A program made the position numbers and the translations under genes. The notes beneath the pieces are model-generated. The model was not told the DNA's origin. It saw only the letters and a program-made list of their open reading frames with translations, and made no database searches. Source: a virus (Duplodnaviria; Heunggongvirae; Uroviricota; Caudoviricetes). Taken from it: a stretch of 6,591 bases of DNA. The stretch is taken from IMG/VR virus record IMGVR_UViG_2634166457_000008, one strand, 5' to 3'. This document shows, one piece after another, positions 1,573 to 6,591 of this stretch (position 1 is the stretch's first letter; each line of letters opens with the position of its first letter).

Positions 1573-1761
1573 CTATGAATGCTGTTTTTTAGACTTATCA
1601 GCCCCCCGCGCAACAGGTGTTCTCTTATCAGAGACAATCCCAGCTGCAGTGGCAATTTCGCGTACCCGTTCGGGTAATTCTTTATCTTCATACTCACCGG
1701 CTCGAATAATCTCAACACGCATACCGTCCGGTGACCATTTCAGATCTTGTTTCAGGATCAT
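1573..1761 (-). CDS. Hypothetical small protein (62 aa) between major capsid and head-tail connector
   Basis: ATG at 1761-1759 preceded by AGGTGA 7 nt upstream, directly after the hairpin. Its TAG stop at 1573-1575 is embedded in the GAGG ribosome-binding site of the connector gene. Hydrophilic, charged sequence with no motif I recognise; supported by gene context only. Confidence 0.45.
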   Translation of the reverse strand: MILKQDLKWSPDGMRVEIIRAGEYEDKELPERVREIATAAGIVSDKRTPVARGADKSKKQHS

Positions 1762-1811: not shown

Positions 1812-3017
1812 TTACGCTGCTGCAATCTTCAGCAGTTTGATGGCCTGCGAATCGACCAGCATGCCGCCGGTGCGCTTGGTGGTATAAAAACCGACAAACG
1901 GTTTATTGGTGTACGGGTCACGCAGAATGCGGGTACCGATACGGTCAACGATGGTGTAACCCCGTTTGAAGTTACCGAATGCAATGGCTTTCGCATCAGC
2001 GGCAATATCCGGCATCTGTTCGTTTTCAGCGATACCGTAACCCGCCAGAGAGGACGGCTGCCCCAGCTCCAGCCCCGGACGCCACAGATAGTTACCCTCG
2101 GTGTCTTTCAGCAGACGAATGGCAAACAGGCTGTTGTTGTTCATCATGAACTTCGCGCCGGTGCGGTGTGCCTTACGCAGCGTGTAAATCAGTTTGATAA
2201 TGGCATCTGCGGTCACTGCCGTCGCTTCGCCGGATACAATATGCTGAAGTTTGCCGAACGCCCGGACCTTGTCGGTTTCATCAGTGGACTCATACGCCAG
2301 GAACCCTTTCGGCTTCTTGGTACCATCGCCGGTGGTAAAGGCAATTTCTTCCTGTTCGGCAAATTCGGTTGCCAGCTCGCTGTTGATCCAGGCCTCCACG
2401 TTGAAAAAGGCATCATCCAGCATTTTCTGGGTGGCCTGCGGGTTACCGTAGATTTCCCCCATGAAAGGTTCAATCAGGCCCAGTTTTGAGGTGGCAGTCT
2501 GGGAGCGCGCGTCAGTCTCGCCCACCCATCCGGAAGCCGTGCCGCCCAGATTCACCAGTTTTTTGTAGTCGGAACCACCAACGGTGATCACCGTGGCTTC
2601 CTGACGCATCACCACTTCATCTTTCAGCAGGTTGAGAATGTTACGATCCAGTTCTTCCGGCACGGCGTAGCCACCGTCTTCATCAGTGCCCACCTGCAAT
2701 GCCTTACGCTCCAGATCGCGCAGACCGTCTTCACGGCCTTTACGCAGGAAGCCCACAAACGCCTCTTTATGCTCGGTGGCCAGTTTATTTTGCGCACCAC
2801 CTGCCGGACGTTTCAGCTCAAGCAGCTCTTTTTCAAGGTCGCTTTTGAGATTTTCCAGCTCGCTGAGTTTTCCGTTCAGGGTTTCCACCTGCCCGGCAAG
2901 TTTGCCTTTTTCCTGCTCAATCGCCTCCACGCGCTTGTCGTTCTTTGCTTTGAAGTCGTCAAACTTCTGCTGCAGCTCCTGCGCGACCTGTTCGACATCT
3001 TTAATATCAACCGCCAT
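1812..3017 (-). CDS. Major capsid protein, HK97 fold (Phage_capsid family) with N-terminal coiled-coil delta (scaffolding) domain
   Basis: 401-aa ORF with ATG at 3017-3015 and AGGAG 7 nt upstream, following the protease TAA; TAA stop at 1812-1814. The first ~70 residues are E/K/L-rich heptad-like sequence (KLAGQVETLNGKLSELENLKSDLEKELLELK), followed by the characteristic GGYAVPEE segment and a capsid-sized body. Gene order protease then capsid is canonical. Confidence 0.9.
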   Translation of the reverse strand: MAVDIKDVEQVAQELQQKFDDFKAKNDKRVEAIEQEKGKLAGQVETLNGKLSELENLKSDLEKELLELKRPAGGAQNKLATEHKEAFVGFLRKGREDGLRDLERKALQVGTDEDGGYAVPEELDRNILNLLKDEVVMRQEATVITVGGSDYKKLVNLGGTASGWVGETDARSQTATSKLGLIEPFMGEIYGNPQATQKMLDDAFFNVEAWINSELATEFAEQEEIAFTTGDGTKKPKGFLAYESTDETDKVRAFGKLQHIVSGEATAVTADAIIKLIYTLRKAHRTGAKFMMNNNSLFAIRLLKDTEGNYLWRPGLELGQPSSLAGYGIAENEQMPDIAADAKAIAFGNFKRGYTIVDRIGTRILRDPYTNKPFVGFYTTKRTGGMLVDSQAIKLLKIAAA

Positions 3018-3031
3018 CGTATTTCTCCTGA

Positions 3032-3682
3032 TTAGAAGTTCAGATTTTTCAGTGCATTCAGTGCAGAGCCCACATCCTCAGCGTCGCGCAGGGACAGTGC
3101 GCCATAACCCCCGGCCATGAATGCTTTGGCCTGGGTACGGGAGAGTCCGACATCACGCAGGACTCTTTCGATTTTTTTCTGTTCGGGGATTTCCCCGCGG
3201 ACCAGCGCGTTCTTGACGTCGCTGATCCGCGCCTCGTCGTTAGACGGAAACGTCACCAGACTGACTTCCCAGAGGTCGATTTCTTTCAGCAGAAAGGCTT
3301 CTTTCGTCCGGTCGTATTCCCAGTCCTTCAGGACGTACCCAATAGAAAGGCCGGTTAACGAACCGGCCTTCATGTGTGCATGTGCGCGTTTTGCCAGGGG
3401 ATCATCATCAATGAGCAACCGCCCCCTGACGTAAAGCCCGATATCGTCTTCCTTCATTTCGGTGTAAACACCGATGGGCTCATCCATGCGGTGCTGCCAG
3501 AGCAGCGCAGGCAACGCTTTTCTGTCACTCTACGCCCGCAGGGAAGCAGCAAATGCCCCGGACATCACCACATCATCGTGACTGTCCTTTACACCAAAGA
3601 CGGAGCCATATCCTTCAAACTCACCGGAGTCACTGACAGATTTCAGACTCAGCGGTACATCAAGACGTTGTTTCGTCTGCAT
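3032..3682 (-). pseudogene. Prohead protease (HK97 gp4 / peptidase S78-like) interrupted by an in-frame TAG at 3530-3532
   Basis: Track ORFs 3530..3718 and 3032..3514 are in the same minus-strand frame and separated only by one TAG. The N-terminal piece carries the S78-like start (GEFEGYGSVFGVKDSHDDVVMSGAF); the downstream piece carries the conserved ALLWQHR...PIGV and GLSIGY segments that I take to contain the catalytic His and Ser by analogy to HK97 gp4. Likely start is ATG 3682-3680 (AAGGA 8 nt upstream), overlapping the portal 3' end by 23 nt; ATG 3718 has no Shine-Dalgarno. The track's start for the downstream piece is a TTG with no convincing ribosome-binding site. Confidence 0.75.
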
Positions 3683-4901
3683 TGGCGTTATCCTTCTGCT
3701 TACCGGCTTTACTGCCATCGGAGGGTTTCGTGGTCATGTTCATCGGTGTGAGATAGACATCCCCACCGGGACGCGGATTCATATCTTCCAGGTCGCGGCA
3801 GTCATTGGGAGAGTAAATTCCCCAGTTAATCCCGGTGGCGTAGGCTTCAAAACGGGACTTCATATCCCCGCGCAGTAACGCCCCGGCGTTAAATTTGGCG
3901 TAATAAACGCCCTGCTTACTTTTTCGTACCAGTCCGGTGTTGATCCGCTGTTCGATGCGGGTCAGATACGGCACCAGTGAATAGTTGATAAATCCGAGCC
4001 CCAGTTCTTCGATATTGTTGAAGGTGGCGCGATCGGTGTTCTGCACCATGTGCAACGGTACCCGGAACAGACGACAGATTTCTTCAAGCTGAAACTTGCG
4101 GGTTTCCAGGAACTGGCTGTCCTCGGCGTTCAACGCCATCGACTTCCAGTCCAGCCCCATCTCAAGGATCATCGGGCGGTGAGCATTGCCAAGCCCGGTG
4201 TGACGCTCCTCAAAATCTTTCTTCAGGCGCTCATAAGCCTGATCTGACAGCGTCTGCTCTGTACGCAACACACCCGACGTCACCGCGCCATTGCTGAACA
4301 GTCTGGCCCCGTGCTCTTCGGTCGCTGCCGCCAGCGATATTGCCTCGCGGGCATAGGCGATGGGATTCAGCCCCACCAGTCCGTCCAGCGTCAGCGTGCG
4401 CACATGCCAGATATCCTCCTGGCTCAGTACATCCGTGGAGCCATCCGGGAATGTGACCTGATAGACCGGCTCCCAGCTACTGTTAAGCTTCGGTACCACA
4501 CAGCCGGGATCGACGGGCAGCAGTTCAGCCACTTCGCCAAATGCTTTCACTTTGTAGGCGTAAAAGTTTCCCCTCAGGCACAGACAGGTGACCACCAGCT
4601 CCCAGAACTCCTGCGGCGTCATATAGCCATTAGGATGCGTGGAGATCAGCTTATGCAGACGTTCGCCGGTGGCTCTCTGTTTCAGGCTGCCGTTCATGTG
4701 ATACAGATTGCAGGGCAACATCCCGACCGACTCTGCCAGCACCCTGACGCAGGAAAAAACCGCCGTCAGTCGCATGGCCCGCTGACTGCTGATCTGCTTT
4801 CCGGTATAGGTGTCGTAAGACAACCCGATGGCATCCGCCAGCTCTGCTGGCGTGGTCACCGGCGCGTCACTTTTTCGTTGAAATAATCCCGAAAAGAACA
4901 C
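3660..4901 (-). CDS. Phage portal protein (HK97 family)
   Basis: 413-aa ORF with GTG start at 4901-4899 and GGAGG 7 nt upstream; TGA stop at 3660-3662. Size, composition and acidic C-terminal tail are typical of HK97-type portals, and it sits between terminase and prohead protease. Confidence 0.9.
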   Translation of the reverse strand: MFFSGLFQRKSDAPVTTPAELADAIGLSYDTYTGKQISSQRAMRLTAVFSCVRVLAESVGMLPCNLYHMNGSLKQRATGERLHKLISTHPNGYMTPQEFWELVVTCLCLRGNFYAYKVKAFGEVAELLPVDPGCVVPKLNSSWEPVYQVTFPDGSTDVLSQEDIWHVRTLTLDGLVGLNPIAYAREAISLAAATEEHGARLFSNGAVTSGVLRTEQTLSDQAYERLKKDFEERHTGLGNAHRPMILEMGLDWKSMALNAEDSQFLETRKFQLEEICRLFRVPLHMVQNTDRATFNNIEELGLGFINYSLVPYLTRIEQRINTGLVRKSKQGVYYAKFNAGALLRGDMKSRFEAYATGINWGIYSPNDCRDLEDMNPRPGGDVYLTPMNMTTKPSDGSKAGKQKDNANADETTS

Positions 4902-5083
4902 TATTTACCTCCGCCGACAGACGGCTGTGTACGGTCGAGATATCGCGCCACCAGCCACGACCAGAACAGGCACAGCACCCCGGCAACAACAAAACCCGCC
5001 GGGGGATAAATCAGCCAGGCACCATACGCCAGCAAAAGCGCACCCAGCACGCCCACCAGTGGCGCGAGAATTATCAGAAACAT
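4901..5083 (-). CDS. Small predicted membrane protein (60 aa, two hydrophobic helices), function unknown
   Basis: ATG at 5083-5081 preceded by GAGGT 4 nt upstream, directly after the terminase TAA. Translation [48 protein letters not shown] plus a short charged tail gives two hydrophobic segments. Its last codons GGA GGT AAA TAG supply the GGAGG Shine-Dalgarno for the portal, and its TAG overlaps the portal GTG start by 1 nt (TAGTG). Confidence 0.5.
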
Positions 5084-5094
5084 AATGACCTCGG

Positions 5095-6591
5095 TTAAAG
5101 CGAGCGGATGCCCACGCTGACCAGATGTTCAGACAGATCCGGCTCCGGTTCACCGCCATTGACCAGCATCCGGCTCATTGCTGTAAACATCGCAACAGGG
5201 CCGTCGATTTTGGCTTCAGGCGTGGATTTATTCGGGAAGATATTGTCGTTTTTGTCCGGTTTTACCGTAACGTTAGACATCATCCAGTTCATAACCGGGT
5301 GATTGCTGTGATGGAAACGCCCGGCATAGACCAGTGATTCCGTTTCCTTCATGGCCTCTGACAGATTGCGGACCGTCTGCGGAACCTCCACCAGCGGTAT
5401 CCCTTCTTCAGCCAGTGCCAGGCTGAACTGCATCGCGCTCCACGGGTCAAATCCCAGTTCCCTGAGGTTTTCACCACCAATCCATTCCAGTAAGTCACTT
5501 TTTATCTGAGCATGATCGATAACATCACCATCCGTCAGAATCAGCTTATCCATCTCCGCCCACTTCCGGTAAAGTTCTGCCTGCTGCCGCGAGCATCGTT
5601 CCAGCCGTCCTTCCGGGAGCCAGAATTTAAAATCGGCATGAACATGCCCGTTATCCGTTCGCCAGAGTTTTGCCGCCGCACAGATATCAATCTTATGAGC
5701 AAGGTCAACGCCGACCCACATGGGATACGTTTTCAGCTCATGTCGTGGGGCAATGTATTCGCACTTCTCCCACTTAATCATGTCCATCCAGGCAGACTCT
5801 GCTGTTACCCACACATTCATGTGTTTGGTAAAAAAATTCACCCGCGCAGAGACCTGCTCCTTCGCTTTTTTTGCCAGGCGACGCAGATCATCCCAGCGTT
5901 TACAGATGCCCAGGCCCGGATTCGCTTTCTGCCAGACCGTTTCATCAAACGGATCATCTCCCTCATCGAGGGTGTAAATAATCGCAAAGTAGGAGTCGTC
6001 TTTTACCGCGCCCCCCACGTCGCTGTTATAGCCTCGCAATACCTTGATGGCGTAATCGCGTTGCTCGTAACAAATCCCTTCCTTGTTAAAGCCAGCCGTG
6101 GTGATGCCAAATAACAGGGACTGCAGACGGGCACCGGTTGCCGTTTCCAGAACGTCCCACACGTCACGGGTTTTATGTGCATGCAGCTCATCAATAATGG
6201 CGCAGTGGATGTTCAGACCATCCAGGTTGTTTGCATCCGAGGAAAGCGGTTCAAATTTTGATGCGCTCTGCTCCTGGTAAATCGCCAGCTTGTTGAAATC
6301 AAACAACCGCCCGAGTGTCGACCGGGCTTTTCTGACCATATTTTTGGCGTCTTCAAACACGATTCTGGCCTGGTCACGCGTGGTTGCGGCTGAATACACC
6401 TCAGCACCGCCTTCACCATCTGCCCCCGTCATATACAGGCCGATACCCGATGACAGGGTTGATTTTGCGTTTTTACGGGCGACTTCGTTGTACGCCGTCC
6501 GGAACCGGCGCACCATCACCGGGCGTCCGCTGCCATCGCTGCGCATGACAACTTCCCCGGTCTCTTCATTCACCAGCGGAATGACAAAACC
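5095..6591 (-). CDS. Phage terminase large subunit (HK97/Terminase_1-like), partial: N-terminal part including Walker A lies beyond the window edge
   Basis: Minus-strand reading frame is open from the window edge (6591) to a TAA stop at 5095-5097; the track's start at 6573 is a GTG inside this open frame. Translation contains a Walker B-like motif ([11 protein letters not shown]) and a C-terminal RNase H-like nuclease region ([16 protein letters not shown], further acidic residues). No Walker A is visible, so about 100 or more residues are probably missing upstream. Position immediately upstream of portal fits the canonical order. Confidence 0.9.

Follow-up and report, generated by a model that had tools for sequence, protein, structure and literature searches.

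A ymfR-family gene for a predicted membrane hairpin between terminase and portal in HK97-like phages, and its possible part in portal assembly

Why should the head module of a phage carry a gene for a small membrane protein, and why should this gene stand between those for the large terminase and the portal? In this study, we examined this question using a 6,591-nucleotide stretch of viral DNA (Caudoviricetes; IMG/VR record IMGVR_UViG_2634166457_000008), referred to here as the window, in which all genes lie on the minus strand and together form an HK97-like head module. Between the gene for the large terminase subunit (TerL) and the portal gene, the window contains an open reading frame (ORF) of 60 codons followed by a TAG stop (4901..5083, minus strand), which is predicted to encode a two-helix hairpin of the inner membrane. 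These coordinates and the strand agree exactly with those of the original prediction, which had been made from the sequence of the window alone and in which the ORF was regarded as unexpected at this place and possibly as a moron. We show here that ymfR (PHROG 502), the family to which the ORF belongs, is a fixed portal/head-module component of P27/ST64B/e14-type HK97-like phages, and we tentatively suggest that its product acts at the portal step.

Identity of the ORF and its translation signals

Judged by its sequence, the ORF is the already known ymfR gene of the e14 family and not a new gene. Its product and YmfR of Escherichia coli K-12 have the same length and are identical at 55 of 60 positions (92%). 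In the K-12 genome (NC_000913.3), ymfR (b1150, annotated as 'IPR020297 domain-containing protein') is located at 1205549-1205731 in the cryptic prophage e14, where its neighbours are ymfN/aaaE, a terminase remnant, and beeE, a portal remnant. The protein also matches phrog_502 ('membrane protein') with an E value of 1.6e-27, the match covering residues 1-55 of 58 profile positions, and by tblastn the same gene was recovered as Sb3 of Salmonella phage ST64B, as a 'putative integral membrane protein' of phiP27, SfI, SfII and 118970_sal3, and as unannotated copies in SfIV and PY54. The genes of e14, ST64B, phiP27, SfI, SfII and 118970_sal3 have the same coupled junction as the window, and nothing material differs except for the type of TerL encoded upstream in the window. 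With a 601-bp region around the ORF as query, matches were found in 1717 of 5426 complete E. coli genomes, 289 of them over at least 80% of its length, and in the matching genomes the ORF is annotated as 'hypothetical protein'. Searches of Pfam, NCBIfam, PADLOC and PDB sequences gave no significant match for the small protein; DUF1206 was matched by 27 of 33 family members, in all cases below threshold, which is typical of the noise produced by transmembrane sequences.

Two observations concern the annotation of homologues. In PY54 (NC_005069.1), the YmfR homologue of 63-65 aa (2295..2492; phrog_502, 1.7e-17) fills an apparent 190-nt gap between genes 2 (TerL) and 3 (portal) and overlaps both of them. 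In ON470580.1, ON470603.1, ON470584.1 and PQ793804.1 (H16, H18, H24 and H28), the homologue has been labelled automatically as 'head-tail joining protein W'. The lambda gene for gpW is small and, like ymfR, lies between the large terminase and portal genes; however, gpW is soluble, belongs to the DNA-filled head and has a small alpha/beta fold, whereas YmfR is predicted to be an all-helical membrane hairpin and has no Pfam match to any gpW family. An identity with gpW was therefore rejected, and the 'protein W' label is a positional mis-annotation.

For the comparative analysis, homologous loci were taken from species-representative genomes and phage records. This gave 33 loci, of which 32 are intact and one (L019) is frameshifted, and 30 distinct sequences for the tests of reading frame and column entropy. 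The annotated frame is open in 30 of the 30 distinct loci and is the only frame for which this is the case. Column entropy is 0.88, 0.63 and 1.46 bits at the three codon positions, and the median pairwise ratio of non-synonymous to synonymous substitutions (dN/dS) is 0.27, with pS near saturation. The small ORF is a genuine coding gene under purifying selection, as the original prediction had argued. It had also been considered that the hydrophobicity of the product might be imposed by an overlapping real gene; this was rejected, as the other five frames are stopped in most loci and the best of them is open in only 12 of 30. The frameshifted locus is a second copy in Shigella flexneri (CP182557.1), in which the N-terminal half of YmfR is out of frame by a 1-nt length difference. 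It is flanked by a portal gene whose product is 99% identical to the window portal and by an ST64B-type TerL, 38% identical to that of the window.

The translation signals of ymfR are interlocked with TerL upstream and with the portal downstream. In the window, the TerL stop codon TAA (5097..5095, on the minus strand like all coordinates of the window given below) is followed by cc-GAGG-tcatt-ATG, in which the Shine-Dalgarno sequence GAGG of the small ORF (5089..5092) is placed 2 nt past the TerL stop and 5 nt before the ATG; the latter (5083..5081) is 11 nt from the TerL stop. A GAGG or GAGGC context is likewise present at the Enterobacterales loci. At its 3' end, the ORF closes with the codons GGC GGA GGT AAA TAG, and the portal Shine-Dalgarno sequence GGAGG (4908..4912) lies within codons 58-59, 6 nt before the portal GTG (4901..4899), which has G4901 in common with the TAG of the small ORF (4903..4901). 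Both the separate Shine-Dalgarno sequence after the terminase stop and the double use of the 3' end had been read in this way before. The 1-nt stop/start overlap with the portal (TAGTG, TGATG or TAATG) was found in 32 of the 32 intact loci, and a purine-rich, Shine-Dalgarno-like run is present in the last codons of nearly all of these. Most Enterobacterales loci have 9-13 nt between the TerL stop and the start of the ORF (22 nt at L017, for the start picked); in the Halomonadaceae and in PY54, the start overlaps the end of TerL. An RNA structure that hides the portal or the ymfR start was considered and rejected, the minimum free energy z-scores of +0.80 and +0.55, respectively, being no better than those of shuffled sequences. 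Since folding of the junction is no better than shuffled, the translational coupling to the portal that had been proposed, and to which this conserved arrangement points, would rest on the overlap and the embedded Shine-Dalgarno sequence.

The predicted membrane hairpin

Sliding hydropathy detects two hydrophobic segments, approximately residues 2-24 and 30-46, with IYPPAG between them, and the AlphaFold2 (AF2) model computed with the 33-sequence alignment has helices at residues 2-24 and 27-52, with a predicted local distance difference test score (pLDDT) of 67. Hydropathy and the AF2 model agree on the two hydrophobic helices that had been predicted earlier, and the 60-aa protein has the form typical of the family, in which some 50-70 aa make up two hydrophobic helices with an xPAG turn between them (hydropathy, AF2, and alignments A1 and A2). 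Transmembrane helix 1 (codons 2-24; 5012..5080) leads into the tight IYPPAG turn (codons 25-30; 4994..5011), which is uncharged and predicted to be periplasmic; this is followed by transmembrane helix 2 (codons 31-46; 4946..4993) and a basic, poorly conserved tail that is predicted to be cytoplasmic (codons 47-60; 4904..4945).

In alignment A2, which comprises 33 sequences from two bacterial orders, 11 residues are invariant, namely M1, then G11, G14, L17 and W23 of helix 1, G30 of the turn, and G35, C38, L39, W41 and S42 of helix 2. The frequency of the commonest residue is 0.71 in helix 1, 0.81 in the turn, which is the best-conserved stretch, 0.75 in helix 2 and 0.33 in the tail (residues 47-57), and it reaches 0.61 in the last three residues. 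The codons for the terminal GG(K/E/D) (GGA GGT and similar) double as the ribosome-binding site of the portal, so that the conservation of the C-terminal GG is explained by the portal Shine-Dalgarno sequence. Charged residues are absent from the turn in 33 of 33 sequences, the tail has a mean of 2.45 K/R per sequence, and K/R are confined to the tail or to the N-terminal extensions of distant members, which are basic. According to the positive-inside rule, an uncharged turn together with a basic tail and basic N-terminal extensions would place both termini in the cytoplasm and the turn in the periplasm, and we infer that the product is an inner-membrane helical hairpin with N-in/C-in topology and a short uncharged periplasmic turn. 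EF-P-dependent stalling at YPPAG was also considered; it was rejected because PP is not conserved (APAAG in the Halomonadaceae, TPAAG in PY54 and YEPAG in Azospirillum) and only xPAG is kept.

Four different natural proteins of 102-122 aa (P0153, P0161, P0193 and P0221) are tandem head-to-tail fusions of two such hairpins. P0153 and P0161 are encoded on metagenomic contigs (L121:64-399 and L122:127-495) directly upstream of a PF04860 portal, and P0193 and P0221 are known by sequence only. The existence of these natural fusions argues for a parallel self-association, and it suggests that hairpins of the YmfR family may oligomerise through the small-residue faces of their helices. The AF2 model of the fusion from L121 (111 aa) has four helices, with a pLDDT of 74.8 and a predicted template modelling score of 0.41, values at which their packing is not established. 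A Foldseek search against BFVD gave nothing below an E value of 0.8, the query, a two-helix hairpin at pLDDT 67, being uninformative.

Distribution and place in the head module

A word-indexed search gave 163 clusters of the family and an exhaustive profile search 289 (50% identity, E ≤ 1e-3), nearly all of them of 50-70 aa. The scan of species genomes gave 29 loci; genera with loci are Escherichia, Shigella, Edwardsiella, Mangrovibacter, Scandinavium, Erwinia, Serratia, Citrobacter and Lonsdalea in the Enterobacterales and Halomonas, Salinicola, Vreelandella, Chromohalobacter and Modicisalibacter in the Halomonadaceae. An even sample of 400 Pseudomonadota species genomes contained 5 matches, including the centre genome itself and three marginal ones (E > 1e-4), and the ymfR-family gene is sporadic, as expected for a gene of prophages.

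In 32 of the 33 loci, the gene is immediately preceded by TerL and immediately followed by the portal. A conserved small ORF at the terminase-portal junction of relatives, for which the original prediction had proposed to search, is thus found, and it is found in distant members too. Enterobacterales and Halomonadaceae share 47-57% identity in the small protein, as compared with approximately 39-41% for TerL and the portal. In Azospirillum phage Cd, gp30 ('membrane protein', 59 aa) is encoded between TerL and the portal and scores 39.7 bits against the family hidden Markov model and 1.5e-12 against phrog_502. Six distant representatives (profile E 1e-8 to 1e-5) are all encoded directly upstream of the next head gene, for which PF04860 was confirmed in five; at L125 the contig ends 31 codons into the gene downstream, and TerL alone was confirmed. 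The protease modules near the distant representatives are of the S78, ClpP or S49 type, and the slot is kept across portals that are only 32-40% identical. ORFs of a sister family, phrog_7105 (gp25 of Ralstonia phage Dina and gene 0002 of Vibrio phage K263), likewise encode 52-67 aa with two hydrophobic helices and occupy a slot overlapping the portal start; however, they are without the CLxWSW signature of YmfR and give only weak cross-matches to phrog_502, with about 10 bits against the family model.

In the HK97-like phage HK106 and in Pseudomonas phage pAN, TerL is followed straight by the portal without such an ORF, although the portals are related (31-34% identity), and in Streptococcus phage Javan102 the slot holds a MerR gene and no YmfR-like ORF. 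Presence and absence were judged here from phage records; a portal-alignment scan of viral contigs gave only near-identical loci (89-100%). The ymfR-type ORF is standard in some HK97-like lineages and absent from others. The earlier view that HK97-like modules normally go straight from terminase to portal, which made the ORF appear unexpected, is therefore correct for HK97 proper (HK106) only, whereas in the P27/ST64B/Sf/e14 lineage and beyond the ORF is standard. One further record, a 5.6-kb contig listed as 'MAG: Bacillota bacterium' (JAEWTL010000102.1), contains an E. coli-type TerL-ymfR-portal block with a portal 99% identical to that of the window and is probably a mis-binned enterobacterial prophage contig.

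The window is 97% identical to ST64B and e14 at the nucleotide level from a point about 29 nt ahead of the ATG of ymfR onwards. This point, in the last TerL codons, is a recombination boundary; the TerL proteins of the window and of ST64B are 37% identical. Across 28 loci, the identity of the small protein correlates with that of the portal with a Spearman coefficient of 0.77 (partial 0.71) and with that of TerL with a coefficient of 0.51 (partial 0.30), values that are descriptive only, as the pairs are non-independent. The ymfR gene travels with the portal rather than with TerL.

The remainder of the window is occupied by the other genes of the head module. TerL is represented by the 3' 498 codons of its gene (5095..6591, the 5' end being beyond the window), with Pfam matches to TerL_ATPase (1.7e-27) and TerL_nuclease (3e-52), and its homologues in E. 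coli are annotated as terminase large subunit. The portal gene, of 413 codons with a GTG start (3660..4901; Phage_portal, 4e-108; annotated as portal in homologues), is followed by genes for an HK97-family prohead protease (3032..3682; Peptidase_S78, 5.8e-23) and for the major capsid protein of the HK97 fold family (1812..3017; Phage_capsid, 8.2e-80), after which come head-tail connector, head-closure and gp10-like genes. The protease gene contains an in-frame amber codon TAG at 3532..3530 (gcg TAG agt), at the position of Trp51 (ASLRAWSDRK) in the intact homologue of 217 aa; a 181-bp stretch of this region matches 1100 E. coli records, with a best identity of 98.9% among the matches listed. 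Unless the base is a sequencing error, the protease is truncated and this prophage copy is probably defective in the maturation of its heads. A 62-codon ORF (1573..1761) situated between the genes for the major capsid protein and the head-tail connector corresponds in length and position to an E. coli homologue annotated as 'hypothetical protein' (8874..9062 of locus L001) and has Sb7 of ST64B as its positional counterpart; it may be another conserved small gene of this head module.

Possible roles of YmfR

What could a membrane hairpin contribute at this position? By analogy with T4, we suggest, at a probability of roughly 0.4, that YmfR forms an oligomer in the inner membrane late in infection, that it is synthesised alongside the portal, and that it assists in portal or prohead initiation. 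A role at the portal step is proposed because the slot and the overlap persist through exchanges of TerL and of the protease and through divergence of the portal down to 32%. YmfR and the portal would be made in a fixed ratio by termination and reinitiation at UAGUG, and the hairpin oligomer in the inner membrane would then act on the portal step, providing portal-ring formation or prohead initiation with an inner-membrane site, in function like T4 gp40 with YidC. In T4, gene 40 is not known to neighbour gene 20, and we know of no reason to expect a sequence relation between YmfR and T4 gp40. The analogy is a functional one only, that of a phage membrane protein which, with host YidC, helps a soluble portal to assemble at the inner membrane, as has been described for gp40 and the T4 portal gp20 (PMC4493910). 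Since there are HK97-type phages without ymfR, its product would play an accessory part and would not be required universally.

A contact might be made through the hydrophobic N terminus of the portal, which reads MFFSGLF in the window (codons 1-7, 4881-4901). Portals encoded after a YmfR-like ORF, i.e. that of the window and those of loci L004-L033, start with MF(F/L/W)(P/S)G(L/M)F, also when the 30 residues that follow are unrelated, and the portals of HK106 and pAN are without this heptapeptide motif. The heptapeptide could be a contact or membrane motif, or it could reflect a constraint on reinitiation (ATGTTY).

Several points weigh against such a role. The Javan102 portal, which is not preceded by the ORF, has the similar start MGILSSLF, and the portal motif is therefore a lead only. 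The conserved residues of YmfR are intramembrane or in the periplasmic turn and the cytoplasmic tail is variable, its GG being accounted for by the portal signal, so that a conserved cytosolic interface for a soluble portal is missing. HK106 and pAN have related portals and no such ORF, and HK97 proheads are known to assemble without any membrane factor. Moreover, tight linkage alone could explain the joint divergence of the small protein and the portal. Finally, our literature search found no functional experiment on YmfR. The gene is mentioned in deletion lists, where its loss along with e14 passes without remark, as a neutral site for integration (PMC9145139), in a table of SOS/e14 induction (PMC10012262) and in one ASKA screen (PMC10299036), and a search of the literature on terminase-portal membrane proteins found nothing relevant.

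The main rival to a role at the portal, although a doubtful one, is that YmfR has nothing to do with head assembly and is an effector that works at the membrane late in infection. As an oligomer, the hairpin would target the membrane itself or a membrane protein of the host, for example by blocking the entry of superinfecting DNA, by tuning lysis timing or membrane potential, or by neutralising a membrane-bound host function, and the slot before the portal would merely give low, late and coupled expression. A partner in the membrane or periplasm would fit the location of all conserved positions within the membrane or at the periplasmic turn, and the tandem fusions point to an oligomer here as well; in addition, the gene is dispensable in the related head modules of HK106 and pAN. 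In its small size, two transmembrane helices, predicted N-in/C-in topology, Gly/Ala-rich helix 1 and charged C-terminal tail, YmfR is formally like the class II holins (S21 pinholin), and it also bears a formal resemblance to the small exclusion proteins T4 Imm and HK97 gp15. However, no holin family in Pfam was matched at threshold (best Phage_holin_3_6, E 0.083, in 4 of 33 members), and the prophage has a complete lysis cassette with a class II holin; this cassette, with holin, lysozyme and lysis-protein genes, is found some 3-4 kb upstream of TerS/TerL in a near-identical E. coli prophage, and ymfR is not part of it. Overexpression of ymfR was tolerated in one screen, in which an ASKA clone grew at 0.1 mM isopropyl β-D-thiogalactopyranoside, which is weak evidence against a lethal holin (PMC10299036). 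No defence-system match was obtained with PADLOC, no promoter was found that would serve expression in the prophage state, and an effector would leave unexplained both the exact slot with its 1-nt portal overlap across portals 32-40% identical and the retention of the gene across three protease types and swapped TerL genes.

Alternatively, the ORF might be mainly a translational coupling device that delivers ribosomes to the portal start and sets portal output relative to TerL, with the peptide as a tolerated by-product. This would agree with the universal presence of the overlap and embedded Shine-Dalgarno sequence in intact loci, with the weak GTG start of the window portal and with the origin of the C-terminal GG; however, it is improbable, as a pure spacer would drift, whereas the hairpin shows strong conservation, with 11 residues invariant among 33 sequences and a dN/dS of 0.27, HK106 and pAN couple TerL to the portal directly without an ORF, and the portal start is free of occluding RNA structure (z +0.8). 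More improbable by far is the moron that the original prediction had in mind, that is, an independently acquired and expressed lysogenic-conversion gene. Small membrane proteins are common among morons, and in PHROG the category of phrog_502 is 'moron, auxiliary metabolic gene and host takeover', but the label 'membrane protein' seems to be the only basis for this. No terminator-like site was found on the coding (minus) strand. Just one promoter-like site was detected (9/12 match), no more than chance would give (0.6 expected), and it overlaps the ATG; the 11 nt to TerL and the -1 nt overlap with the portal leave no room for a promoter and terminator of its own. Its G+C content (0.56-0.58) is like that of the flanks (0.55-0.58), every relative with this portal type has the gene, and its position inside the late operon is fixed in all lineages, even where portals are 32-40% identical. 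In e14, ymfR RNA rises only together with the induced prophage, by 4.5 log2 under an SOS-inducing drug (PMC10012262). From the sequence we infer that ymfR is transcribed only within the late operon, and the moron explanation is largely refuted.

As a sequence feature, ymfR is ordinary, being a named K-12 gene with a PHROG family that is present in about a third of complete E. coli genomes. The membrane hairpin it encodes has been conserved between Enterobacterales and Halomonadaceae no less than TerL and the portal, and it is locked to the portal start across very distant phages. To our knowledge, membrane-bound prohead initiation has so far been documented only for T4. In the widest form of the portal proposal, which we consider unlikely as a whole, YmfR/PHROG 502 and the sister family phrog_7105 would be unrecognised, widespread portal partners, i.e. 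low-copy membrane oligomers that nucleate or hold the portal ring, perhaps via the N-terminal MF(F/L/W)xG(L/M)F, and prohead initiation would be membrane-bound in a large clade of HK97-like phages of Proteobacteria. If portal or prohead initiation is indeed tied to the inner membrane in these phages, the textbook view of HK97-type heads assembling free in the cytoplasm would need revision; if YmfR is a late membrane effector instead, it would represent a compact and widespread phage tool that acts on the host envelope.

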